DNA from: a virus
Taxonomy: Duplodnaviria; Caudoviricetes
DNA length: 64,000 bases
Direction: 5' to 3' (one strand)
Virus record (IMG/VR): IMGVR_UViG_3300020414_001395
Coordinates: 1,145 to 65,144 of that record
This document shows positions 2-64,000 of the stretch, in pieces. The first letter of the stretch is position 1. Each line of letters opens with the position of its first letter. The notes below the pieces were generated by a model, which had not been told where the DNA came from, searched no databases, and saw only the letters and a program-made list of their open reading frames with translations. Made by a program: the position numbers and the translations under genes.

Positions 2-349
2 GTTCTCTTTGGGTCTGAAACGTCAGACCTTCCCCCCGCCTTTTTCAAGGGAGCGCAGTCGGTGCGTCTTCGCAGAGTGTACAATGTCCTTGTGTACAAT
101 GTCCAATGCGATGCAGTTGTGTTCGAGTCCCAACCTCCCTTCCATATTGATGCAGTTCTGAATCTCAGTACACTTGCAGACGTGCAAGCCGAACGAATCA
201 AGTTGCATCAATGGCAGAGACACTTACCGCATGAGGATGTGGGTTGGTGTGTACACGGCAATAGTTACTCCTTCCACCCTTTACCGAGGGCTTATGGCAA
301 CGAGTATGAGCTTGTGTGGTGGTTCGACTCCACCCTCTGCTACCATTAG
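2..349 (+). CDS. hypothetical early protein, 5'-truncated
   Basis: Frame open from position 2 to TAG at 347-349; codon style like other early genes; stop abuts hairpin repeat copy 1. Confidence 0.55.
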   Translation, partial: VLFGSETSDLPPAFFKGAQSVRLRRVYNVLVYNVQCDAVVFESQPPFHIDAVLNLSTLADVQAERIKLHQWQRHLPHEDVGWCVHGNSYSFHPLPRAYGNEYELVWWFDSTLCYH

Positions 350-409
350 TAGTGTGGTATATATACTCTCTCTGAACGTAGTGAAGAGAGTATATATACA
401 CACAATACT
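348..409. repeat. early intergenic hairpin repeat, copy 1
   Basis: GTATATATACTCTCT(357-371)-CTGAACGTAGTGA-AGAGAGTATATATAC(385-399); outer stem AGTAGTGTG/CACAATACT. Confidence 0.95.
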
Positions 410-17243: not shown

Positions 17244-17362
17244 GACTCGCAATCCTCTGGGTTGTCGATGTTGCAGGTGATCTCACCATCTTCAATCTTC
17301 TTCTCTTGCTTCTTGAGCTTGTCTTGATCAAGAAAGCTGATGTCGTCGAAATCTTCCTCCAT
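17231..17362 (-). CDS. 43-aa peptide ending in CNIDNPEDCESCSG (not in ORF track)
   Basis: MEEDFDDISFLDQDKLKKQEKKIEDGEITCNIDNPEDCESCSG; TAATG coupling to the holin. Confidence 0.7.
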   Translation of the reverse strand: MEEDFDDISFLDQDKLKKQEKKIEDGEITCNIDNPEDCESCSG

Positions 17363-17805
17363 TATTTTTTGGCTTTTTCAATGGTTCTTCCTGCGAAGTA
17401 TGCACCGAAAGAGGTGAGCATTAAGATCTCCAGCAAAGATACGTAACTATCTTTTACGTTAAATGGCCAACCATCCATGCTGTCTGCGACCATTGTAGCC
17501 ATAAACATGACCATTAGGCAGATCAATGTAACAGGTCTAATCAGCTTTGCAAGCTTGACATCACTACCCATGTCCGCCTTCCATCTTTCGCTTACATTGT
17601 TCTGAAACTGAACCTCTGCGTCGAGCATGGCCTTAGCTTCTGCAGGGTCAACATCAGGCTCCTTGTCTAACAGATTTTTTACCACGCCAAGGGCGCCTTG
17701 GTCTGGGAGCAGGTCCCCCACCGTATCCAGTACAGAGGGGGCCTTTTCTTTCAACCACTTGCCAAGGCCAGTGTCTTTGATTTTAGTCTTTTCTGGTTTG
17801 CTCAT
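17362..17805 (-). CDS. holin (3TM gene-transfer-release type)
   Basis: RWKADMGSD...IRPVTLI; two TM segments; YFAGRTIEKAKK basic tail. Confidence 0.7.
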   Translation of the reverse strand: MSKPEKTKIKDTGLGKWLKEKAPSVLDTVGDLLPDQGALGVVKNLLDKEPDVDPAEAKAMLDAEVQFQNNVSERWKADMGSDVKLAKLIRPVTLICLMVMFMATMVADSMDGWPFNVKDSYVSLLEILMLTSFGAYFAGRTIEKAKK

Positions 17806-20800
17806 ATCTCTTGTTGAATTTCATAACGATGCTTCTCTCTTTGTCTGCGAGCTCCTGCATCCTCTTCATTCTCTCTGTGTAGTCCTGTATCTCTAGAGCG
17901 TTTCTTCTCTGCTTTCTTAGGTTGCTCAGCTGCTTGTCGTAAATCTTCAAGACTTCAGACAAAGCGTAAACGCCCTTGTATCTGTCGGGGTCGTCCTTGC
18001 GTCTAGCTCTTTTCATTTCAGCCTTAAGCTCCATGATCTTTTGACGACGGGCCCTGTAATCCTCCACATCCATGTACTTGGATGGCTCTCCGTAAAGGAT
18101 TCTCAAGAAAGGAAGGTCGTTCGCCTCTATTTTTACTTCGTTGTCTGAAGCCTTTGCAGCAAGGCCTCTGACAGCCTCTCCCGTTCTGGTAACAAACTTG
18201 CCCGCGCCACCGATGAAGTACTCAAACAAGTACCACATCTTGTCGGGATTGAAGTCAAGGTCTCCCTTCACCTCCACAGATCCTCCAGTAGCTTCGTTCA
18301 TCCATCTGAAGAATTGCTGGACTGACTCGGGAGATCTAAACGACATTGATGACTCTGGCTGCTGCAACCCGTAAGGCAGATTCTCCTTGAATACAGGACC
18401 CCCAAAGTATGTCTCGTTGGTCATTATGTCTACGATAGGCTTAAACACCGTAGGAACCGCAGACTTACCAGCCTTCGTAAACAGGTCGCTAGATTGACCA
18501 AAGCTGATTGGAGAGAATGAGTTAATGAACGAAGACGTCAGTTGCATCATCGCTGTGTCAATCTCTTTGTGTCCAGCCCCAACTTCAACGGCACTGCTAC
18601 CCAGATTTGCAAACAAGCTGAATCCGTATGGGAGAGGGACCTTGTAGTAGTCTTTCCCGTTGGGGCGCATGATGATGAGGTTTCTTTCCTTGATGTAGTC
18701 TGGTATCTTGTTGTAGTACAACTCTCCATCTTCGTCCTCTCCAGACATCGCAAGAGACAGCATGGTCAGCATACCATTAAACACAGTAAGTGCCGCAGCC
18801 ATCTTCTGGGCGTTGTTCATGCGATCCTTAAACGCTCTCTTCGTGCCGTCTGGGTATGTTGGCTCCTTCAGCGTGAGAAGAGATCTTCCAAGCCTAGCTG
18901 TACCCTGCACAGATGCGTTGAAGAAAAGGTATACTGAGTTCAACAGCTGTCCGTACTCTCCAGACTTGTTGAAGTTTACAGTGATGTTCTTGGCAAGCTG
19001 AGCCGCCTTTTCTCTGCTAACCCCCTTCTCTCTGGCCGCGATGTAGGCCGACAGACGAATGCTGTTCTCGAATGCGTCGTTGACCCCCTCGATGGTTCTC
19101 GCAAACGCCTCTGCATTACCCAAAAGGGTCTGCATTCTTGTCTTGTCTGAAGTCTCAGACTCAAGCGCTGCGGCAATATCCGCGAGTGGCTTTGCATAGC
19201 TCCATCCAGTCTTGCCGCCGTCGTCCCTGAAGTCATTGTAGTACCTTTCAATCTCTGGGTTCTCTTTCAAGAACTTAGACAAGGCCTCAGGGGTCTCGGC
19301 CTTAACCAAAGCCTTCAGCGTCGCGGGAACCTTACGTATCATGTCTGCGACAATTGCGTCGCCTTCGATGATACCCCCTGGGATATCCGCTTCAGCCGCT
19401 GCATTAAAGATGGCTGATTGTATATCTCTTGAGAAGTTAGATATCATAAACTCTGGGTTCAGAGTTGTAAATGATCTTCTGAGCCAGTTTGATGGGGCTC
19501 TCAACATTCTTACAAAGACACTAGTCGCGGGGAGGTTCATATTCCTCAGGGTCTCAGCATAGCTGGCGTCCTTGAATCTTATGAACTTCTGCTCACCATC
19601 AACCCTCACGGATACTGAGTGTGGATCTTGAGAGGTCGCCTTAGATCCATCAACGATTCTCCATACCTTATCGTTAGGATTCTCCTTTACCAGCTCGTAC
19701 AGGGATTGCAAAGCTTCGTTTGTTCTTGCTTTGATGTGTACACTTGCGTTTTGCGCAATCACCTGAGCCAATATGTTTTCAGCCTGAGACTTACGACCTT
19801 CCGCTCTCTTTGTTGTTGGGCCAAACACAGACAGTCCAGCCCCACCCGTTGGGTAGGAAGAGGTAACCGAAGACTCCTCGTCGACAGCGATGCCAGACAA
19901 AGGCACGTAGCTATCAAACTGAGATTCAAAAGCATCAATGGCCTCCTGAGACTCAAGCCCAAACTCAACCATGGTGTCTCTTGTGTCTTGCTGTATATCC
20001 CTAACCATCTTGACTATTGCGTCAAGGGTAGATCTTTTGTCTGAAGGAATAGAGTCAATGATTGACCTAGCCTCCTCGTTTGTCATACCCGACCCGCTTT
20101 CTTCTTTTCCTTCGGTTCTCTCTTCTATGAGTGCGTTTCTTTCTGGGGCGTGAAGAGCATACAGGTAATCAGAAACCTCTTGAACAGAAACTCCACCTTC
20201 CTTCATGGCTTCCACAAGATCTTTCTGCTTATCATCAAGCTTCCTGAGATCCTCCGCAGCCTTTCCGTACATAAGCTCCTCGGCCATTTTGAAGTCCTGA
20301 GATTGATCTCTTACTCCACGGGCAGCCTCTACGTCTTCCTGCAGCTTAAATATGTCAACGTACTTGTCCTGAAGCCTTTTGATCCACTTATTTCTCCAAG
20401 TCTGGAAAGCAGTGAGATCAGAGACCTGCCAAGTGCCTTGGTCCGTTCTCACCGACTTCAGCCCTCTTACGTCTCTAATTGAGGCCTTTCCATTGACGTC
20501 CTGCACCTCTGCATTGACCTCATACTGGCTATATCTGTTAAGAGCCTCCGCCTTTGAGTATGGGTCTGATGCTCCCTCAAACTCCTTCTTTCTTTTTGTG
20601 TCTTTAGCTTTTCCTGAAATATCACCCCCGATAAAGTCTGGGTCAATCTTATCAAGAGTATACTGTTCCTTAAAAACCTCAAGAGATGTTGAATCTCCAT
20701 CGACTATTATAGCTCCAGTAAATCCATATCCAGAAAGATTCTTGACCCTCATGTTCTTGAGAACTACCTGGCCATAATTCTTAAGTATGTCTTGGTCGAT

Positions 20801-23800
20801 CTCGTATGTGAATCTTTTTCCGCCAAACAGCGTTGCGGCTTTTTGGGCTTTCAACGCTGGGTCGTTAAAGTATTCAGCAATTTGCTGATCTATCGTTCCT
20901 GACGTAGGGACGTCCCTACCCATCTCAAAGGCTTCGTGGGAGAAGTACTCCCCCATTACATCCTTGCCAAGGAAAGGCTTTCTAGCTTCGAACTGATCAG
21001 CCATCTTTGTGTGGTAGTTGATGAGTACATCAACTATTTCTTCAAACTGCTTTTGCGTCGTTACAGGAAGAACAAAGTCTGACGAAGAGAACAGTCTTGC
21101 GGTTTCTTCAGAGAGTCCTTCGAAGCCGTCGTTTTCTGCCATCCTAATCATCGTCCTCACCTTAGCTTTCGCGGCTGAAGTAAACTTATCATATATGGTG
21201 GGTCCAGAAATACCCACGTTCTTGTCTCTAGACCTTGCAATAAGGCCTCTCATCACAGCAACAAATACGTCTGGATTACCCTTTGTGGCTTTGTATGTGA
21301 GCGGAGCAAAGAGGCTTCCAAATTTGCCAGACATAGCAATGGCACTATCGGCCTTGTTCATTCTCGACCTCGCTCTCTTCTCCTCGTCCTTGAATCTTAT
21401 GTTGTTTGCCTTGTCAAAGATGGCCTGAGCTTGAGCCCTGTATCTCTCCATTCTTTTTCTTGCCATGGCGAGGTTTACGTGTGTCGAAACCACGGACTCA
21501 CCCTCTTTGAGCTCTTCAAGGTCCGCATCGTCCAAGTCCATTACAGCCCTGGGCCCAGAGGTTATACCTTTTTCTGTGTCAGGCATTGTTTTGTCGTACC
21601 CGCTAGTGGGAGAGAACAAACCCCTATAGTCCTCTAGGTTACCCTCCTGAAAATCTTTCATTTGATTTTCGGGCATCACGTAATCTGGATCCCCAAGGTC
21701 CTCCTTTTTGTACCTAATGGCGAACAGGCCAACGGTGTCTCCAGCCTCGGCGTCATCAAAAGGAACCATACCAGTGGCATTGACGAGGTCGCTGTCCTGA
21801 ACTCTGTTCAATGGAGCGTAAGCCCTAGACCTTCCACTATCATCAATTCGCTTCTCAATGTCCTCCTTGGTCAGCCCCATCTCAAGCGCTGCCTCAATAT
21901 TCTTCTTTGCTATTACTGCAATCCTGTAGTCCTGATCAGCTGTTCTTTCCATGCGCTCAGGCCCTGGGGGTTCGAACTGAAGGGCGTTGACATACCCGTT
22001 CCATGGAAGCTCTCTAAACAGCTTCCTAGACTCGTCTCTAATGTCTCTCGCTTGACGTCTTACCTCCTTTCTTTGATCTGAACGGTCAAATGCCTCTTTG
22101 CGCTTTTGCTGATTGTAGGTCAGGGGGACCTCCATGTAGACTGGATTTCCATCTCGGTCTACCTTTGGTCTCGGAGGGTTCACCTTGTACTTCTTCCCAT
22201 CCTTTATGAAATACATGTTTGCTATCCTGTCAGCCCTTTGGTTGCCAGTCTGCTTGTTGTACCAGTTTCTGAAGTGGAAGTAGTCGTTAACCTTGACTGA
22301 CTTTTGAGCTGAATACGTTGTGTATCTGCTGCTCGTCAATGGAGACTGACCAGGACCAAGGGACGGGTAGTTCGTGTAGAATATCTCTGTGTCCTTCAGG
22401 TAGTCAAAGTTTTTCTTCTGTCTAACGGACAGACGCCCCTGGAACATGTCTATACTTTCAGCGCCCTGCTCAAGCACATCTTCCTTAGGCGTTACTACAC
22501 CCTCAAAGCTGCCAAGCATGGCGTCCGCAGCTTTTGCGATACGAGCGTCAAACTCCTCTTGAGTTTCTGTTGGTCTCTTAGGTGCGACGTCGGGCTGAGC
22601 CTCTTGCTGAGGCTCCTCTTGAACCTCCTCTTGAGTTTCTTCTGCGGTGGCCGTTGCTGGCTCTGGCTCAACTGTTGTCTCCTGACCTTGAGCAGCCCTT
22701 CTGAATTTGTCCGCAAGATCAAACAGGCCTTCGTCCCCTTTGATGACGTTGCCTTTTACTCCAATGCCCTTAAACACTCGGTTAAACGCGGCTCTAATCT
22801 TGTCCTTTACAGAAAGGAACTGATCTGGGTTATTTGCGTATCTGACAAGAACAGATATGATTGACTCTTCCTGAAGGGTAGCATCGGGTCTGCCCTCATA
22901 GAACTTCTTTGTTTCTTCAAGTACGGCCTTAACTGCCTTGGCTCCTTTTGTTTTGCCTTTTGCAATCTTCTCCATCTCCCCATACAGCCGCTGTCTAGCC
23001 TCTGCGTCCTTTCCGATCACTCCCTCAAGCACTGCGTGACCAAACTCCTCAAAGGCGTCAATAGCCTCAGTGTTGTTGTTGAGGTGGATCGTATTTGTGT
23101 CCTTGTCGTAGTAACCGTATATAGCCCCCTTCTTATCCTGAAGGACTTTCATTTGAGCCTTCATCTCAGGGCTAATCGTGCCGAAAGATTCGTCAGTCTT
23201 ATGAAACTTAACCTTTGTCCCAAGCTTGTTTAGAACCCCGCCAAAGGCCTTGGTCATTTTGTTGATGGACGATGCAACAGCTATTGGTATCTGTCCAGCC
23301 CCGTCACCAACAACTTCAGTATCCTTCAAGTCCACCATCTGACCCTCGGCAACGTTGACCTCAAATACGTCCTCTGTCTCCTGCTCTACAGGCTTCTCGG
23401 TAACCTCTTCTTCGACTTGTGTCTCTGCCTCAGTCTCAGCTTCAGCTTCTGGCTCAGCCACAGTCCCAGGCTCCGTGACCTCGTCAAACAAAGACAGCTG
23501 CACAGCCTGCTGCTGCTGACCCTCTGGGGCTGCATCTGTTGCTTCAGGCACATTGTCGTGGGACTTTTTCTCTGACTCCTCTACCTTTCTAGTCTTAGCT
23601 GGCGACTTTTGCTCGCCTGCATCCTCAACCGTAGGCGGTGTCTCAACCTCTCTAGAGGTCTCCTCTTCTGCCTGTCTTTTTTCGACGGCCTGCTCCAGCT
23701 CTGCCTTTTTGTTGAGATTCTCTTCAAGTCTTTCTTCGATGGCCTGCCTCTCTTCTTGAGTGACTGGGTCTCCCGTCCAATGCTTTCCGCTCTTTAGTAT

Positions 23801-25639
23801 TTCCTGAGATCTAGCGATCTCTTGATTGTACTTGATTAGAGCTCCTTTTTCCTCTGGAGAAAAATCATCGTAAAGCTTAGCCTCCTCGTTAGTAATAACC
23901 TTGGCTGCCGCCATAGATTCAACAAGCTCCTTTTCTAGTTGTTGCTTTCTTACGGGATCTGTTTCGGACTCGTACCTCTTTCTCAGGCGAGCCATTTTTT
24001 CCATTACAACGGATCTCTGCGCCATGAACCTTGTATGACCCCTGTGAGAGGCAAGTGAGGTTACTGATATAGGACCAAATCCACCTGCCATACCAGCAAG
24101 TGCGGCATCTGCAACCTCATGGAAGTTTAGATCCCTTACGTTTCTGCCCATCATGATGTTGTCCACAGCGTCAATCGTCCAGTCCGCCACGGCCACTACA
24201 CCCTCTTCAAGGCCTTCTGCTGCCGTCCCCTTCAGTATTCTCTTGCTGAGTCCTTCGACAACCTCTCCGCTCATCTCCTTCTTGGCAGACTCTATGGCAG
24301 CCTTTCTAGATCCAGACCTCAAGCCCTGTACGGCATAGTCCGCACCAACCTTCATCTTCAAGAGAAGGGCGGCCATACCAACTTCTGCCGTGGCTCTAGC
24401 CGCAGATGTAAACGCAGCCTCAGATATGCTCATGTGAGGTGAGTAGGCTCTCGTGTTTCCGTAGCTCTCTCCAAACACATCAACAGCCATTACCGCAGGG
24501 TTCACAGCCATTTCAGCTATGGACTTCAGTCCATCAGCCATAACTCTTCCAGTCTCAAGAGACGTTGTGGCAAGGTAATCCCCGATAGAGATGTCTCCGT
24601 TCCACGCGGCCATAGTTCTTTCGGTAATCCCTTTCGAATATGCCTCCTCAGAAACGCCCAACCCCTCATAGAAAACCCTTTCTTTCTCTGAGTTTATTTG
24701 GTTGGTTTCTTTGATCTTATCCTGATAGTACTGAGAGGTAAAAGAATCTCCGTAAAGGTTTCTCATGCCGAGGCCTTCCCCATATACATCCGCTTGGAAG
24801 GCGGCCATCCCAGACACCATGTTGGAAATGCTGAGATCTCCCAAGAGAAGGCTTCCGTAGCCAACCTCTTCGTCGCGCATTCCTGGGATCTGTCGAATAA
24901 ACTCTTCAGTCTTTTGATCAAATTCCCTTTCGTCTCTCTCAGCTCTTTCTGCGGACTCCCTGAGGAACAAACCAAAGTCTGACTCACTGTTTATGTCGTA
25001 CTCAAGGTCAATACCAAGAGACTTGTTCATTTCGTTTGCTTTGCTCAAGGCCAGCTGATAGCTGTTCTTACCAAAGCCAATCATTTCGTTGCCAGCCTCT
25101 TGTATCTTGGCCAGGGTCTCTTGATCGTACTCTTCTTCAATGCTGAACTCGGGCAGCAAGTTGTTTCTTTGCGCCTCCTGCAAAGCCTTTGTTATGGCCT
25201 TGGGGTCATTAAAGTTGACAGCTCTTACCAGATTGTTTCCAAGCCTGCTGTTCATAACCCCGTTCATTGCCAGCTCGTCGTTCTGACGAATCTGAAAAAG
25301 ACGAGGATCAGCTATCGACTCTTGGGATCCAAGTGATTGGGGATCGGAATCCAAGGACTCCCCACTTAGTACGGATGGAGAATCTTTTTTTTTTAAGCCA
25401 TCATACGCCTCCCTCTGCTGCCTGAAGAGTTCGTCTCTTCTTTCTTTCTCCTGAAGAAATGCTTGACGCTCCTCTTCATGCCTCCGAATAAACTCGTTGG
25501 AAACGTCGGCAGGGTTGTACCCCACATACGACATGATCTCGACGATTCTGTTTGAATCGTATCCCTTCCTCTGAAGTGCATCAATTCCTTCCCCAACAGG
25601 TATTTGATTGTTGGTAGGTGTAGTAGAATCTCCGTTCAT
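17783..25639 (-). CDS. large polyvalent / internal virion (ejection) protein, 2618 aa, with C-terminal LPD38-like region
   Basis: NPEFMISNFSRD, AKNITVNFNKSG, LFFNASVQG, KVPLPYGF; zincin-like AFEEFGHAVL near residue 870; position after tail genes. Confidence 0.75.
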   Translation of the reverse strand: MNGDSTTPTNNQIPVGEGIDALQRKGYDSNRIVEIMSYVGYNPADVSNEFIRRHEEERQAFLQEKERRDELFRQQREAYDGLKKKDSPSVLSGESLDSDPQSLGSQESIADPRLFQIRQNDELAMNGVMNSRLGNNLVRAVNFNDPKAITKALQEAQRNNLLPEFSIEEEYDQETLAKIQEAGNEMIGFGKNSYQLALSKANEMNKSLGIDLEYDINSESDFGLFLRESAERAERDEREFDQKTEEFIRQIPGMRDEEVGYGSLLLGDLSISNMVSGMAAFQADVYGEGLGMRNLYGDSFTSQYYQDKIKETNQINSEKERVFYEGLGVSEEAYSKGITERTMAAWNGDISIGDYLATTSLETGRVMADGLKSIAEMAVNPAVMAVDVFGESYGNTRAYSPHMSISEAAFTSAARATAEVGMAALLLKMKVGADYAVQGLRSGSRKAAIESAKKEMSGEVVEGLSKRILKGTAAEGLEEGVVAVADWTIDAVDNIMMGRNVRDLNFHEVADAALAGMAGGFGPISVTSLASHRGHTRFMAQRSVVMEKMARLRKRYESETDPVRKQQLEKELVESMAAAKVITNEEAKLYDDFSPEEKGALIKYNQEIARSQEILKSGKHWTGDPVTQEERQAIEERLEENLNKKAELEQAVEKRQAEEETSREVETPPTVEDAGEQKSPAKTRKVEESEKKSHDNVPEATDAAPEGQQQQAVQLSLFDEVTEPGTVAEPEAEAETEAETQVEEEVTEKPVEQETEDVFEVNVAEGQMVDLKDTEVVGDGAGQIPIAVASSINKMTKAFGGVLNKLGTKVKFHKTDESFGTISPEMKAQMKVLQDKKGAIYGYYDKDTNTIHLNNNTEAIDAFEEFGHAVLEGVIGKDAEARQRLYGEMEKIAKGKTKGAKAVKAVLEETKKFYEGRPDATLQEESIISVLVRYANNPDQFLSVKDKIRAAFNRVFKGIGVKGNVIKGDEGLFDLADKFRRAAQGQETTVEPEPATATAEETQEEVQEEPQQEAQPDVAPKRPTETQEEFDARIAKAADAMLGSFEGVVTPKEDVLEQGAESIDMFQGRLSVRQKKNFDYLKDTEIFYTNYPSLGPGQSPLTSSRYTTYSAQKSVKVNDYFHFRNWYNKQTGNQRADRIANMYFIKDGKKYKVNPPRPKVDRDGNPVYMEVPLTYNQQKRKEAFDRSDQRKEVRRQARDIRDESRKLFRELPWNGYVNALQFEPPGPERMERTADQDYRIAVIAKKNIEAALEMGLTKEDIEKRIDDSGRSRAYAPLNRVQDSDLVNATGMVPFDDAEAGDTVGLFAIRYKKEDLGDPDYVMPENQMKDFQEGNLEDYRGLFSPTSGYDKTMPDTEKGITSGPRAVMDLDDADLEELKEGESVVSTHVNLAMARKRMERYRAQAQAIFDKANNIRFKDEEKRARSRMNKADSAIAMSGKFGSLFAPLTYKATKGNPDVFVAVMRGLIARSRDKNVGISGPTIYDKFTSAAKAKVRTMIRMAENDGFEGLSEETARLFSSSDFVLPVTTQKQFEEIVDVLINYHTKMADQFEARKPFLGKDVMGEYFSHEAFEMGRDVPTSGTIDQQIAEYFNDPALKAQKAATLFGGKRFTYEIDQDILKNYGQVVLKNMRVKNLSGYGFTGAIIVDGDSTSLEVFKEQYTLDKIDPDFIGGDISGKAKDTKRKKEFEGASDPYSKAEALNRYSQYEVNAEVQDVNGKASIRDVRGLKSVRTDQGTWQVSDLTAFQTWRNKWIKRLQDKYVDIFKLQEDVEAARGVRDQSQDFKMAEELMYGKAAEDLRKLDDKQKDLVEAMKEGGVSVQEVSDYLYALHAPERNALIEERTEGKEESGSGMTNEEARSIIDSIPSDKRSTLDAIVKMVRDIQQDTRDTMVEFGLESQEAIDAFESQFDSYVPLSGIAVDEESSVTSSYPTGGAGLSVFGPTTKRAEGRKSQAENILAQVIAQNASVHIKARTNEALQSLYELVKENPNDKVWRIVDGSKATSQDPHSVSVRVDGEQKFIRFKDASYAETLRNMNLPATSVFVRMLRAPSNWLRRSFTTLNPEFMISNFSRDIQSAIFNAAAEADIPGGIIEGDAIVADMIRKVPATLKALVKAETPEALSKFLKENPEIERYYNDFRDDGGKTGWSYAKPLADIAAALESETSDKTRMQTLLGNAEAFARTIEGVNDAFENSIRLSAYIAAREKGVSREKAAQLAKNITVNFNKSGEYGQLLNSVYLFFNASVQGTARLGRSLLTLKEPTYPDGTKRAFKDRMNNAQKMAAALTVFNGMLTMLSLAMSGEDEDGELYYNKIPDYIKERNLIIMRPNGKDYYKVPLPYGFSLFANLGSSAVEVGAGHKEIDTAMMQLTSSFINSFSPISFGQSSDLFTKAGKSAVPTVFKPIVDIMTNETYFGGPVFKENLPYGLQQPESSMSFRSPESVQQFFRWMNEATGGSVEVKGDLDFNPDKMWYLFEYFIGGAGKFVTRTGEAVRGLAAKASDNEVKIEANDLPFLRILYGEPSKYMDVEDYRARRQKIMELKAEMKRARRKDDPDRYKGVYALSEVLKIYDKQLSNLRKQRRNALEIQDYTERMKRMQELADKERSIVMKFNKRYEQTRKD

Positions 25640-59841: not shown

Positions 59842-59846
59842 GAGTG

Positions 59847-59854
59847 CAAATATA
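59847..59854 (-). promoter_or_regulatory. late-type promoter -7 element TATATTTG
   Basis: 5 nt before ATG 59841. Confidence 0.6.
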
Positions 59855-60006
59855 ACCAGACTTTTTTTACTGACTTAGCCCGATCATAGGCCACATTTAC
59901 AGCTAAAACACTACTACCCTCGCGCCATAAAGAATAAGGATTCATCTGCGTACACGCAAAAAACCATCTTTGGGTGCTTTCTTTCATCTGAATCGCTTTG
60001 ATTCCG

Positions 60007-60037
60007 TAAAGGTATAAAGGAAAATTTGAAAAGTCAA
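60007..60037 (-). promoter_or_regulatory. Bacteroidota-type promoter pointing into the late arm
   Basis: TTGAC-N18-TACCTTTA; aligns position-for-position with the promoter at 8340. Confidence 0.5.
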
Positions 60038-60192
60038 TAGTCTAGCAACGCTTTAAGGCAAGGCCTCTAAGTTGCTGTAAGCGAAAGGGTTAGAGTTTTT
60101 CGTGTGAATTTGTTTCTGAAGGCAATAACCCAAGATCACGCTGAAAAAAGAGGGGAGTAACATTTACCGTGGGGATTATATATATCTATGAG

Positions 60193-60605
60193 CGTTAGGT
60201 CCGAAGGACCTAAACGGATTTCCAGACCCCACCCCCTCAAACTACTTCGTAGTTTGCGCATACATTTCAGCTTTTGCTCTACCTACTGACTTACAGTCAG
60301 TTAGGTAGCCTCAGCTCTAGCCACCGTTGAGGACCGCAGGATGGGACGTGCAGTCCAGCAGGGTGGGACAATCCCTCCCCAACCTCTCTAACCGACTTAC
60401 CCCTTCCCCTTATAGGGGAAACATTGACTCCGATTTGGTCGGCCTTCGCGATGGCTAACCTACGGATACAACTTGTTGTATCTCAGCGCGTTAGCAGCTT
60501 TCACTTCCACTACTACTACCCTTGGTAGTGTAGTGAGGACACTGAGGGTAGAGATATGTATTAGAATGAAAGAAACCTTTAGGTTTCATTCTAATACATT
60601 ATCTC
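60193..60605. other. non-coding cluster of six short inverted repeats plus one 24-bp stem at the strand switch (candidate terminus/origin/early control region)
   Basis: Stems at 60195-60213, 60238-60256, 60279-60308, 60404-60420, 60465-60482, 60508-60535, 60551-60605. Confidence 0.8.
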
Positions 60606-60612
60606 ATAAACC

Positions 60613-61276: not shown

Positions 61277-61282
61277 ACCCTT

Positions 61283-61346
61283 AGAGAGTCTTAGTATATA
61301 TACTCTCTCTGAACGTAGTGAAGAGAGTATATATACAAGACACTCT
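61283..61346. repeat. early intergenic hairpin repeat, copy 2
   Basis: 15-bp core 61294-61308/61322-61336; outer AGAGAGTCTT/AAGACACTCT. Confidence 0.95.
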
Positions 61347-61378
61347 TGAAACCTTTTTCAAACTTCAATTCAATCACC

Positions 61379-61525
61379 ATGCAGACATTTGCAGCTACCC
61401 GCCGTCAGCTTATCGCTGACCTCCTCGACCTCCACCTCTCCTTCGACGCAGTGCGTGCCACCGCTGAGTGGGACGAACTCACCTGCCTTGAGCAAATGAC
61501 CTTGGAGGACTTGATTGAGATGTAA
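61379..61525 (+). CDS. 48-aa hypothetical early protein
   Basis: MQTFAATRRQLIADLL...; CAAACTTCAATTCAATCACC leader. Confidence 0.6.
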   Translation: MQTFAATRRQLIADLLDLHLSFDAVRATAEWDELTCLEQMTLEDLIEM

Positions 61526-61533
61526 TCTCAAAT

Positions 61534-61591
61534 CTCAGGTACACTGACGAGCCTTGAGTAGGCGAAACACCACGAAAGTGGTGTCTGTATC
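61534..61591 (+). ncRNA. type I hammerhead ribozyme
   Basis: Stem I GGTACA/TGTATC; core CTGACGA; stem II GCCT-TGAGT-AGGC; GAAA; stem III ACACCAC-GAAA-GTGGTGT; GTC cleavage triplet (cut after 61585); loop II TGAG complementary to upstream CTCA. Confidence 0.92.
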
Positions 61592-61610
61592 AAACTTCAA
61601 TTCATCTACG

Positions 61611-62024
61611 ATGGACTATCAAAATCTCATGCTTCTGCGCTACATGAACGTGCAAAGCGGCAACGGATTCTCCGTTGACAAAGACCTCGACGGCTACAGC
61701 CCCGTGGTGGAGGCGTATGCAGTAGGCGGCGCGACTGAATCGGTTGAGATGATTGACAACAACTTGTTGTCATTCAACACCTTCCGAGAAATCATGGAAC
61801 TCAAGATTGAGTTCATCGAGAACACCGAACGTTACTTCCGTAACGTGGACCCCATCGGCAAGTACCAACAGGTAATCGGTGCTTGGGTGAACGACGACAA
61901 CTACGTCTACATCGAGGTCTCCGACATCGTGTTCGACCGCGAAGAGGCCATCGCCTTGGGTAAGGAGCGCGAAGAGGAGGCCATTTGGGACTTCAAGAAC
62001 AACTGCGAAATCAAACTCACATGA
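61611..62024 (+). CDS. hypothetical early protein (MDYQNLMLL)
   Basis: Start reassigned to ATG 61611; the track start 61554 lies inside the ribozyme. Confidence 0.7.
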   Translation: MDYQNLMLLRYMNVQSGNGFSVDKDLDGYSPVVEAYAVGGATESVEMIDNNLLSFNTFREIMELKIEFIENTERYFRNVDPIGKYQQVIGAWVNDDNYVYIEVSDIVFDREEAIALGKEREEEAIWDFKNNCEIKLT

Positions 62025-62248
62025 ACGTATGGGAACGCTACCCCAAGCGGGGCACGGCGAGCGATTGGCTCCCCAAGTCGGTACCAACCGACGAGTACCG
62101 AATGGTCTACTACTACGGCTTCGACCGAGACGACTGGAATGCGCTCACGTTCAAGGCGTGGTCACTCGACCATGCCAAGCAACGGGCACTCGACCTTGTG
62201 CCCGACGGACACAAAATCAAGTCTGTGAAACCTGTTGACAATCAGTAA
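62021..62248 (+). CDS. hypothetical early protein (MNVWERYP)
   Basis: ATGA overlap. Confidence 0.6.
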   Translation: MNVWERYPKRGTASDWLPKSVPTDEYRMVYYYGFDRDDWNALTFKAWSLDHAKQRALDLVPDGHKIKSVKPVDNQ

Positions 62249-62263
62249 CTTAAACCCTTTCAC

Positions 62264-62347
62264 ATGAACAAACGAATGAACCTAGCGTTCCTCGCGTTCC
62301 TTGCATGGATGGCCACGCTTTTGGTGGTGGCTCTCCTCCAATCCTAA
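62264..62347 (+). CDS. 27-aa single-TM peptide
   Basis: MNKRMNLAFLAFLAWMATLLVVALLQS. Confidence 0.5.
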   Translation: MNKRMNLAFLAFLAWMATLLVVALLQS

Positions 62348-62410
62348 GAGAGTGTTAGTATATATACTCTCTCTGAACGTAGTGAAGAGAGTATATATAC
62401 AACACCTCTC
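62348..62410. repeat. early intergenic hairpin repeat, copy 3
   Basis: 15-bp core 62358-62372/62386-62400; outer GAGAGTGTT/AACACCTCTC. Confidence 0.95.
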
Positions 62411-62435
62411 AATGTCAAACTTCAAATCCAATCTT

Positions 62436-62684
62436 ATGGACAACTTCTTCAAACGCCCCGTCGGAGCGGCGGTGCTCTACCTCAACGACTTCCACTTCGG
62501 CAAGAACCTCGCTGTGCTCAACCGAGCGGCTCGACTTGTGCCCAAGGACGTCAAGGGCTTTGCCTCCCTGCTCTCGGACACACCGAATGCAGACCCTGAC
62601 CACGTTCAGGACATCATCAACCTGCTCGACGACTACGCCAACGACGTAGACAACGACCTCATCTTCAACCTCAACAAGTCATGA
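62436..62684 (+). CDS. hypothetical early protein (MDNFFKRP; alternative in-frame ATG 62412)
   Basis: Follows CAAACTTCAA leader. Confidence 0.65.
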   Translation: MDNFFKRPVGAAVLYLNDFHFGKNLAVLNRAARLVPKDVKGFASLLSDTPNADPDHVQDIINLLDDYANDVDNDLIFNLNKS

Positions 62685-62992
62685 AATTCACACACTCCTT
62701 CAAACACACACTCCCCTTCGTATCAATGCGGACAGCCTACGACGTAGACCTCGATGCCGAGAAGAATGTGGAGATGGACACCTCGGTGTCGGTTGACCCT
62801 AACCACCAATATGGTGGTTGGTACGAAACCTACGACCTCGAAACAGGTGGTGACCGCTTCTATGCAGAGGGTGTACTCGAAGTGTACTTCGACGAAGATG
62901 GTCCACGGCTCACGGGCTACGATGGATGCTTTGAACTCCCTGAATACATCACCGATGCCCTCGAAGAGAAGGGCGTAATCATTGACCTATGA
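62681..62992 (+). CDS. hypothetical acidic early protein
   Basis: GWYETYD...YAEGVLE...LTGYDGCFELP. Confidence 0.65.
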   Translation: MKFTHSFKHTLPFVSMRTAYDVDLDAEKNVEMDTSVSVDPNHQYGGWYETYDLETGGDRFYAEGVLEVYFDEDGPRLTGYDGCFELPEYITDALEEKGVIIDL

Positions 62993-63144
62993 GAGAACTC
63001 ATTGCAAAGAATCAAATCAACAAGGACTGCCCCACCTGCAAGGGTGAGGGCTATGTCCTGACTGCGGTGTACTCACACCCAACCATCCCTGATGGGACGG
63101 AGCGTTACGAAGTATGCGACGAATGCAAACACAACAAGACATGA
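62989..63144 (+). CDS. 51-aa zinc-finger protein
   Basis: CPTCKGEG...CDEC. Confidence 0.55.
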   Translation: MRELIAKNQINKDCPTCKGEGYVLTAVYSHPTIPDGTERYEVCDECKHNKT

Positions 63145-63341
63145 CACAAGAACAATGCGAATCAGCAGTCAAGGCACTGCAAGAGTGCGGGTTCACCGCA
63201 TCCCATGTGATGGGCGCACCTGACGACCACGGCGTGTGGCTGGACGAGGTGTGGAACGACGAACTACAGGAAACACACAGCTTCCGCATCCATGACGAAG
63301 AAATCGAATGGTGGGGAGTAACCAACTCATTGAAGACATGA
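63141..63341 (+). CDS. hypothetical early protein (MTQEQCES)
   Basis: ATGA overlaps at both ends. Confidence 0.6.
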   Translation: MTQEQCESAVKALQECGFTASHVMGAPDDHGVWLDEVWNDELQETHSFRIHDEEIEWWGVTNSLKT

Positions 63342-63484
63342 CACAACACGAACGACTTTCCCTCCGACAGACCCACTGCGGTAGCTTTGAACGTGCGCTC
63401 ATCGAGGCGTGGTTCAAGGCAGACATGGGCAACAAGAAGACTCTCGAAGAGGCCTTCAAGAACACCAACTTCGACCTTACTTAG
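63338..63484 (+). CDS. 48-aa hypothetical early protein
   Basis: GSFERALIEAWFKADMGN; stop abuts hairpin copy 4. Confidence 0.6.
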   Translation: MTQHERLSLRQTHCGSFERALIEAWFKADMGNKKTLEEAFKNTNFDLT

Positions 63485-63544
63485 AGAGTGTTAGTATATA
63501 TCTCTCTCTGAACGTAGTGAAGAGAGATATATACAACACCTCTC
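63484..63544. repeat. early intergenic hairpin repeat, copy 4 (compensated 1-bp deletion)
   Basis: GTATATATCTCTCT(63494-63507)-CTGAACGTAGTGA-AGAGAGATATATAC(63521-63534). Confidence 0.95.
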
Positions 63545-63576
63545 AACAACATTGTCAAACTTCAAACTCCAAACCA

Positions 63577-63840
63577 ATGGACAACATCAAAGACATGACG
63601 AACGACGAGTTCGTCAGCCACCTCATGACGGGGTACAACAAGCACGGGGCACTCGTGCAAATGGTAGTCCTCGACTGCCTTCAGCGTGGTCTTGACCACT
63701 ACATCTCAGCCAAGGACGAAATCCTTGAGGATGAGCGCAAGCGCCGTGAGAACGGAGGCGGTATCTCCCTCATCAACATGGAGGCATGGGTCTCATGTTG
63801 TGAGGAAACACAACAACGAATCCAAGACAAGTACTCATGA
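63577..63840 (+). CDS. hypothetical early protein (MDNIKDMTN)
   Basis: Follows CAAACTTCAA leader. Confidence 0.65.
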   Translation: MDNIKDMTNDEFVSHLMTGYNKHGALVQMVVLDCLQRGLDHYISAKDEILEDERKRRENGGGISLINMEAWVSCCEETQQRIQDKYS

Positions 63841-64000
63841 TGCAACCACATACATGCCACAAGTGCGGAGGCGAAGGCATCTGCCTCGGCACCCAAGAGG
63901 TTGGGTACTCTACAAACCAAAACTACCTGATTCTGCACGACTTCGAGTGTGATAATTGCGAAGCAACGTGGGACGTAACATTTGAATTAACACCAACAGA
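63837..64000 (+). CDS. zinc-finger protein, 3'-truncated
   Basis: CHKCGGEG...CDNC; runs off the window end. Confidence 0.55.
   Translation, partial: MMQPHTCHKCGGEGICLGTQEVGYSTNQNYLILHDFECDNCEATWDVTFELTPT

Follow-up and report, generated by a model that had tools for sequence, protein, structure and literature searches.

The stretch of DNA analysed here (hereafter, the window) covers 64,000 nucleotides (nt), bases 1145-65144 of the 65,144-bp IMG/VR virus record IMGVR_UViG_3300020414_001395, which CheckV rates as complete. Our subject is a family of long hairpins, called hairpin A below, that recur at the boundaries of small genes in this phage genome. The terminase has its best relatives among Flavobacterium 'elemo' podoviruses (41% identity), Cellulophaga phages and an uncultured 60.8-kb podovirus (48%); other genes encode a BT4734-type primase-helicase, a portal protein and giant virion proteins of 2618 and 1754 amino acids (aa). 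Judging from the terminase relatives together with these other genes, the host is almost certainly a member of Flavobacteriia. Small genes lie on the plus strand at 60.6-64 kb and 0.4-13.5 kb of the window, with the structural genes between them on the minus strand. Hairpin A, its conserved tip and the leader that follows it are found at the following positions:

348..409, plus strand: hairpin A, copy 1; follows a tRNA-like non-coding region, with the leader from 420 and an ATG at 442; covariance-model match 342-415, 78.9 bits
61283..61346, plus strand: hairpin A, copy 2; a small open reading frame (ORF) ending at 61277 lies upstream and the MQTFAAT gene (ATG 61379) downstream; covariance-model match 61279-61350, 87.9 bits
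62348..62410, plus strand: hairpin A, copy 3; begins where the TAA at 62345-62347 ends, with the MDNFFKRP gene (ATG 62437) downstream; covariance-model match 62343-62415, 96.2 bits
63484..63544, plus strand: hairpin A, copy 4; its base overlaps the TAG at 63482-63484, and the MDNIKDMTN gene (ATG 63578) lies downstream; covariance-model match 63479-63549, 85.9 bits
62375..62385, plus strand: tip of copy 3, conserved GAACGTAGTGA; these 11 nt also at 374-384, 61311-61321 and 63510-63520
61358..61381, plus strand: CA-rich leader TCAAACTTCAA...ATG; also at 420-444, 61590-61614, 62415-62439 and 63555-63580

A preliminary description of the window had reported these four copies in one orientation, and this was borne out by exact matches to CTGAACGTAGTGA, which is present in every copy and occurs four times in the window, on the plus strand only. 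In copy 4, each arm is indeed one base short (GTATATAT-C / G-ATATATAC), so its stem is one base pair shorter than the others; the outer stems differ between copies yet stay complementary, with single bulges, and the palindrome GTATATATAC is found in both arms of copies 1-3, all as originally described. A fifth copy, identical to copy 4, occupies genome positions 1-80, at the contig start and outside the window. As RNA, the copies fold at -27.8 to -30.6 kcal/mol (z -4.8 to -6.4), and 0/200 shuffles fold as well. The hairpin observation is thus genuine and far from chance. The claim that each copy adjoins a stop codon holds for copies 2-4 (gaps of 5, 0 and -1 nt), while for copy 1 it is true in a formal sense only, since the 'stop' there closes an open frame running through the apparently non-coding tRNA-like region. 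It is also worth mentioning that the two ends of the contig (genome 1-505 and 64614-65130, the latter being window 63470-63986) are 82.4% identical copies, each beginning at a hairpin and encoding the paralogous MENIKDMTN/MDNIKDMTN genes; they are either paralogues in tandem or variants from two strains that were joined when the contig was assembled as a circle.

The 21-nt core of the hairpin recurs in 38 stretches of ~33 other marine viral contigs, and 45 distinct hairpin copies, including those of the window's own genome, could be compared. Their stems are AT-rich, almost perfectly Watson-Crick and 19-32 bp long, with a mode of 24. When 36 distinct sequences were aligned with the covariance model, pairing was seen in 97.1% of cells; changes on both sides were observed in 12 pairs versus 5.0±1.2 in shuffles (0/500 shuffles reach 12), and compensatory cells numbered 57 versus 13.4. 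Pairing falls to 27-71% when the register is slid by 1-3 columns. An alignment-free comparison agrees, with 17.3 pairs formed by cognate outer arms versus 11.7 by non-cognate ones. Moreover, the tip is also found in contigs of unrelated phages (L010, L016, L040 and others), where it caps stems of 19-32 bp with an entirely different sequence. The covariance model had been proposed in the preliminary description as a check on its claim of selection acting on both structure and tip sequence; the positive covariation test among homologues from marine viral contigs and the identical tip on unrelated stems support that claim. The two arms are also dissimilar in composition, with a purine fraction of 0.33 on the 5' side and 0.68 on the 3' side, an asymmetry present in 27 of 28 distinct stems. 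No Rfam 15 family exists for the hairpin, a search of Rfam with the hairpins and the whole window returned two tRNAs and a chance microRNA match only, and neither BLAST of the hairpin and its region against GenBank phages nor a literature search on the repeat sequence yielded anything relevant. The long hairpin is an uncurated structured motif common in marine Bacteroidota phages. In one 9750-bp contig, L011 (IMGVR_UViG_3300006919_002226), hairpin copies are mirrored on both strands by an inverted self-duplication, which is probably an assembly or amplification artefact.

The tip itself deserves a closer description. The 13-nt loop, earlier called invariant, is so only among the copies of this phage group; elsewhere it is GAACGAAGTGA, and C-G may replace U-A as the flanking pair. 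In variants with a 5' arm shorter by 2 nt, the first CU of the loop pairs with AG, so the open loop measures at most 11 nt, and it is probably structured as well. The sequence is C-GAAC-GAA-GUGA-G or U-GAAC-GAA-GUGA-A in further copies, from the same and from unrelated contigs, which leaves GA-AC-GNA-GU-GA as the constant part and the N of the triloop as the sole variable tip position in relatives. Such a pattern is better read as a cap, in which putative tandem sheared G·A/A·G pairs, followed by A-U and C-G, would close a GNA triloop (GUA in copy 3). The two Watson-Crick pairs of the cap covary (AC/GU, GC/GC, GU/AC) in bacterial units that share the tip and are described below. Two other ideas about pairing were discarded: the loop could form at most 4 bp with the leader or the 3' end of 16S rRNA, and these are not conserved in divergent copies, while folding of each arm on itself is possible in the main variant only and so is not conserved either.

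The position of the hairpin is equally regular. In 33 of the 45 distinct copies, the stop codon of an upstream ORF ends no more than a few nt from where pairing begins. The leader, CAAACTTCAA, starts 2-17 nt 3' of the stem, and the ATG follows ~20 nt further on; its 11-mer TCAAACTTCAA has five exact copies, or 9 matches with one mismatch counted, versus 2.3 expected. A same-strand gene start was found no more than 60 nt downstream in 29/30 distinct long-stem copies, and in 9/9 from phages outside the core family. Hairpin A thus lies between cistrons that are presumably co-transcribed, in the sense orientation, and neither this orientation nor the purine bias of the arms is predicted by a symmetric cruciform function. 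The hairpins do not resemble intrinsic terminators: the stems have 34% GC, there is no U-tract (T-runs, where present, lie 10-15 nt away), and no terminator-like plus-strand site coincides with them. Nor did we find a sigma-70-type or Bacteroidota -33/-7 promoter motif at the hairpins on the sense strand. In assemblies of relatives, the same hairpin and downstream gene come after different upstream genes in different contigs, and RNA- and DNA-library contigs join different sequences exactly at the conserved core. The RNA-library contigs of ~90%-identical relatives (two seawater metatranscriptomes from one study) all break in the repeated core, as assemblers do at repeats, so they are uninformative on RNA ends; a third RNA run gave no relevant contigs.

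One site in the window, the only place where the leader occurs without the big hairpin, carries a different element:

61538..61591, plus strand: type I hammerhead ribozyme, in the 'hairpin slot' before the shared leader; Rfam RAGATH-1 core alignment 23.7 bits, local E 0.029

This match lies below the Rfam gathering score. Among 21 distinct homologues, however, 99.4% of cells are paired, all three stems contain compensatory changes and the catalytic core does not vary; on these sequence features, we take 61538-61591 to be a genuine type I hammerhead. The cut is predicted after the GUC at 61585, leaving UGUAUCAAACUUCAA... as the new 5' end. A hammerhead of the RAGATH-1 type was also observed, in full length (27.8 bits, local E 0.006), at 17291-17371, minus strand, of NC_055852.1 (L277), the cultured Flavobacterium phage vB_FspP_elemoA_7-9A. 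There it sits in an early-operon gap, where an ORF, gp68, is annotated on the opposite strand, probably spuriously.

In related contigs, the leader comes after every junction element, and the elements that precede it are hairpin A, its near variants A', a second hairpin family (B and B'), a hammerhead, or a tRNA-like 3' end. Junctions of one and the same gene family may hold several of these:

MDNFFKRP gene junction: hairpin A 12, hairpin B 2, hammerhead 2
MDYQNLM gene junction: hammerhead 16, hairpin A' 2, tRNA-like end 1
MQTFAAT gene junction: hairpin A 12, hairpin B 4
MKQYAVIH gene junction: tRNA-like end 3, hairpin B 2, hairpin B' 2

Only 1 of ~75 marked junctions is empty, and some other gene families never carry a junction element. 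Hairpin B occupies the same slots though it has no G·A cap, and its tip is absent from 201 Flavobacteriaceae genomes. Hairpin A is not itself a hammerhead: it presents a GA/GAA half-core on a single helix and has no CUGANGA, no cleavage strand and no Rfam match. Since hairpins interchange with self-cleaving ribozymes, the simplest common denominator of the junction elements is a boundary function at the RNA level. A limited literature search found no report of hairpins replacing hammerheads at orthologous phage junctions.

The tRNA-like ends have a counterpart in the window. Positions 1-345 (genome ~1145-1490), which adjoin copy 1, are non-coding and contain two T-arm/acceptor-like 3' ends, GTTCGAGTCCCAAC... 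and GGTTCGACTCCACC...ACCA; ends similar to these directly precede the leader in relatives. The region has no ARAGORN or Rfam match, and its fold is unremarkable (z = -0.05). At the other border of the plus-strand genes, ~770 nt of structured non-coding DNA (window 59842-60612) mark the strand switch and end in a 55-nt hairpin (~60550-60604, -25 kcal/mol) just 5' of the first early gene; at this place, a long hairpin pair of another kind (class C) is found in relatives.

We think it an even chance that hairpin A works between cistrons of the early polycistronic transcript, as an RNA element for processing or stability similar to the RNase III sites of T7. According to this scenario, the host RNA polymerase would transcribe the plus-strand early genes as long RNAs, in which each marked junction would fold into a ~24-bp near-perfect duplex with a compact GA/GNA cap. 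A host nuclease of the RNase III type might then cut the duplex, or the duplex might at least block 3' exonucleases. The upstream cistron would be left with a protective 3' hairpin, and the downstream cistron would start near the unstructured CA-rich leader, which may serve translation initiation in a Shine-Dalgarno-poor Bacteroidota host. Hammerheads, the second hairpin family and the tRNA-like ends would be alternative devices for the same job. An RNA role is favoured by the sense orientation, the position between stop codon and leader, the purine asymmetry, the near-obligatory occupancy of junctions and the substitution by a ribozyme. In this respect, it is important that the only known activity of hammerheads is RNA self-cleavage, and that RNase III enzymes need a duplex of about two turns, a length which stems of 19-32 bp provide.

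Of the three analogues named in the preliminary description (T7-type processing sites, N4 hairpin promoters and the PeSL cassettes of T4-type phages), the first fits best, given the hammerheads in the same junctions of relatives. The RNase III sites of T7/T3 early mRNA and the Bs-RNase III sites of phage SP82 are intercistronic hairpins. As in those phages, the hairpins recur between early cistrons, form duplexes of about two turns with small bulges and would leave a 3' hairpin on the upstream message. Unlike in those phages, nucleotide-level conservation of the tip extends across unrelated stems, the stems are near-perfect and AT-rich, cleavage is our supposition, and the host is a Bacteroidota bacterium with uncharacterised RNase III substrates. 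We file hairpin A among the known intercistronic processing/stability hairpins of phage early transcripts, as a variant. A further precedent comes from clustered prophage hammerheads, which were proposed to cut polycistronic phage RNAs into gene-length mRNAs (Perreault et al. 2011, PMC3088659). The proposed transcript-cutting job is the same, and here both kinds of element share junctions and leader; hairpin A differs from the prophage hammerheads and RAGATH motifs in having neither a catalytic core nor an Rfam family.

The tip of hairpin A is not confined to phages. The 17-nt sequence TCT-GAACGTAGTGA-AGA was found in >120 bacterial loci from at least 10 phyla, where ~70 chance matches would be expected for a random 17-mer in that collection. 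Most of the bacterial matches (112/133) sit in one 27-nt unit, tGTCATTCT-GAACGTAGTGA-AGAATCt; a search for this unit returned 185 instances versus 1 in a reversed-sequence control, and the GTC flank is present in 160 of the 185. The frame of the unit matches the published architecture of Neisseria NTS and 'Ssn-related motifs' (SRMs; PMC11893778). Such hairpins are bound by small GIY-YIG Ssn nucleases in the single-stranded DNA (ssDNA) form only, with three bases 5' of the palindrome needed for cutting and a C just 3' of it for binding, and the nuclease is inactive on RNA and double-stranded DNA (PMC11893778). Phages receive only a passing mention in that work, in connection with a phage recombinase targeting dRS3 (PMC11893778).

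In our collection, one locus has an Ssn-like gene flanked by 27-nt units, Ssn-like genes are present in 127 of the 201 Flavobacteriaceae genomes sampled, and the strict SRM unit occurs in 9 of them. The phage hairpin shares with the SRMs, which are hairpin-forming inverted repeats of 20-50 nt, a family-specific core, 17 nt of it identical to the bacterial units, as well as a pyrimidine-rich 5' half and a purine-rich 3' half. However, SRMs are 5-bp stems framed by GTCAT...ATC that act as ssDNA and flank ssn genes, whereas the phage hairpins swap both flanks for 15-25 more base pairs. Neither the 5' (C)GTCAT nor a C right after the palindrome was found in any of the 45 core copies or of 99 other viral loci with the tip, and no GIY-YIG/Ssn-like gene was detected in the phage or in any viral locus. 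The bacterial unit, like the phage hairpin, has no Rfam 15 family. In a Nitrospina metagenome-assembled genome (L105, ~1000-1700), 13 SRM units with the tips GAACGTAGTGA, GAACGCAGTGA and GAGCGCAGTGA form a head-to-tail array with a ~34-nt period.

The 99 further viral loci present yet another setting. Here, the tip lies inside long ORFs, antisense in 66 cases and sense in 19, and two antisense clusters (28 and 25 members) resemble replication initiators; scanned representatives matched Phage_rep_org_N, lambda-O-like and DnaD-like PHROGs and DUF1376/primosomal families. In these genes, the tip falls in the inter-domain linker and is read in-frame as SSLRSE. Examples are L280 (4062-4931, minus strand), L315, L329, L376 and ~50 other viral loci, and low-complexity repeats adjoin the tip in such genes. 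Keeping in mind that lambda ori lies within gene O, it is tempting to suppose that the tip may mark origins in the initiator genes. Because of its antisense orientation, the cap cannot exist in the mRNA of these genes, so any function there must be exerted at the DNA level.

These findings include several points that weigh against an RNA processing role of hairpin A. RNase III normally needs no conserved tip, so the conservation of the tip is left unexplained; by sequence, the tip is identical to the core of the proven ssDNA elements, and in the initiator genes of other phages it is antisense, where action as RNA is impossible. The stems have a GC content of 34% versus ~48% for the genome, contain (TA)n runs and fold equally well as DNA on either strand. 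In the 36-sequence alignment, G·U pairs account for 0/919 cells, and all stem changes go from Watson-Crick to Watson-Crick with no one-sided changes. A separate mismatch tally by eye, made as a guide to RNA versus DNA, gives 3 A·C and 1 G·U. The hammerheads, which are certainly RNA, likewise show no one-sided changes, and for this reason the missing G·U pairs are weak evidence against RNA. The same observations feed a different explanation, namely that hairpin A is a DNA-level signal whose GA-capped tip is read on ssDNA, as in the Ssn motifs and the initiator-gene origins; in the early region, it would act on an exposed non-template strand, for example in priming or R-loop replication or in recombination, or it would stand in for host Ssn sites as a decoy, or descend from them as a relic. 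The identity of the 17-nt tip with units bound as ssDNA, the frequency of Ssn-like genes in the probable host family, the antisense copies inside ORFs (66/99), whose representatives are initiator-like genes with the tip in the linker, and the AT-rich, (TA)n-containing stems, free of G·U and stable as DNA on either strand, all speak for it. Yet neither the 5' GTC nor the 3' C, the two Ssn determinants, is present in the phage copies (0/99 and 0/45), no Ssn gene accompanies them, and strict SRMs are rare in the host family (9/201). Furthermore, long-stem copies are sense and beside gene starts in 29/30 cases, opposite to the initiator-gene copies, and such a signal explains neither the replacement by hammerheads nor the near-absence of empty junctions. 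Overall, we consider a DNA signal unlikely, while still giving it real weight.

The identity of the 11-nt tip on unrelated stems in unrelated phages might also be explained if the tip were a sequence-specific RNA operator, bound by an antiterminator, a translational repressor or a dedicated endonuclease, or if it formed a new self-cleaving motif with its flanks. Its layout, GA-helix-GAA, is the same as in hammerhead domain II, and the context is ribozyme-associated, as for the RAGATH motifs (PMC6765202). Such a role is improbable in our opinion: there is no CUGANGA core, cleavage strand or Rfam ribozyme match, no partner sequence or pseudoknot is conserved downstream in divergent copies, no co-occurring protein was identified, and hairpin B fills the same slots without a G·A cap. 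We are just as doubtful that the hairpins are mere cassette boundaries or selfish repeats, that is, PeSL-like recombination hot spots that shuffle small early genes, or tolerated palindromes that template-switch repair keeps perfect, in either case without a part in gene expression. It is true that one hairpin and its downstream gene may be preceded by different genes in different contigs, that RNA- and DNA-library contigs of relatives switch sequence exactly at the core, that the 82.4% identical contig ends start at a hairpin, and that stem changes always restore Watson-Crick pairs. However, hardly any marked junction is empty, and the elements filling them belong to unrelated types, the same tip on unrelated stems means that copies were not transposed as units, and purine asymmetry and sense orientation are unexpected of neutral palindromes. 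Being a cassette boundary is, in any case, compatible with an expression role. PeSLs are likewise structured repeats that lie upstream of early genes and flank shuffled small ORFs, so this analogue from the preliminary description survives in the sense of a cassette boundary; it fails as a promoter, since a PeSL joins a sigma-70 early promoter to its stem-loop and no such motif accompanies hairpin A.

The N4 analogue proved weak. If hairpin A were a DNA hairpin promoter from which an injected phage RNA polymerase started each early transcript, its place upstream of genes in the early region, the c(GNA)g triloop of its tip, which N4 early promoters also have, and the giant packaged proteins of 2618 and 1754 aa would all be accounted for, and both systems have small structured repeats upstream of early genes. 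N4 stems, however, are 5-7 bp long with a fixed distance to the start site, whereas those described here are several-fold longer (19-32 bp), with a leader distance of 2-17 nt, and hammerheads in the same slots imply read-through transcription. The 2618-aa protein (window 17783-25639, minus strand) has no DFDxD motif and no PDB sequence match; only its C-terminal ~900 aa match PHROGs of unknown function and the LPD38 domain, leaving ~1,700 aa without assignment. No phage RNA polymerase was detected by Pfam, PHROGs, a motif scan or a PDB sequence search, which did not extend to a fold search or assign those ~1,700 aa. The ~70-kb tip-carrying contigs suspected of being N4-like were rejected as such, their motif lying inside replication-initiator genes. 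With no polymerase found, stems far longer than those of N4 and a variable leader spacing, we regard a promoter as very improbable. A resemblance to T7-like promoters (GTAGTGAAGAGAG) was dropped, as no single-subunit polymerase gene was found. The crAss-like phage phi14:2, whose virion polymerase is known, showed no common early motif (preprint 10.1101/2020.03.07.982082).

One might also speculate that the GA-AC-GNA-GU-GA cap is a universal hairpin 'handle' used at Ssn sites, in initiator-gene origins and on early mRNAs. The phage hairpins would then be either mimics of host Ssn sites that lack the cleavage determinants and exploit or decoy the ssDNA nuclease, or substrates of a still unidentified cap-reading nuclease that does the job of the hammerhead. 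We put this forward as a decidedly unlikely, if somewhat less doubtful, idea than an operator or a selfish repeat.

Our results suggest a tie between a motif of marine phages, through its tip, and the repeats of the Ssn ssDNA nucleases as well as probable phage replication origins. Such a link is absent from PMC11893778 and from the literature searched. As for the reading of hairpin A as RNA punctuation of the early transcript, its broader significance lies in the elements with which the hairpin is exchanged. What hammerheads do in bacteria and phages has long been an unanswered question. The junctions described here, at which a tRNA-like end, either of two plain hairpin families or a ribozyme can stand before one and the same leader, make the role of the hammerhead directly testable.

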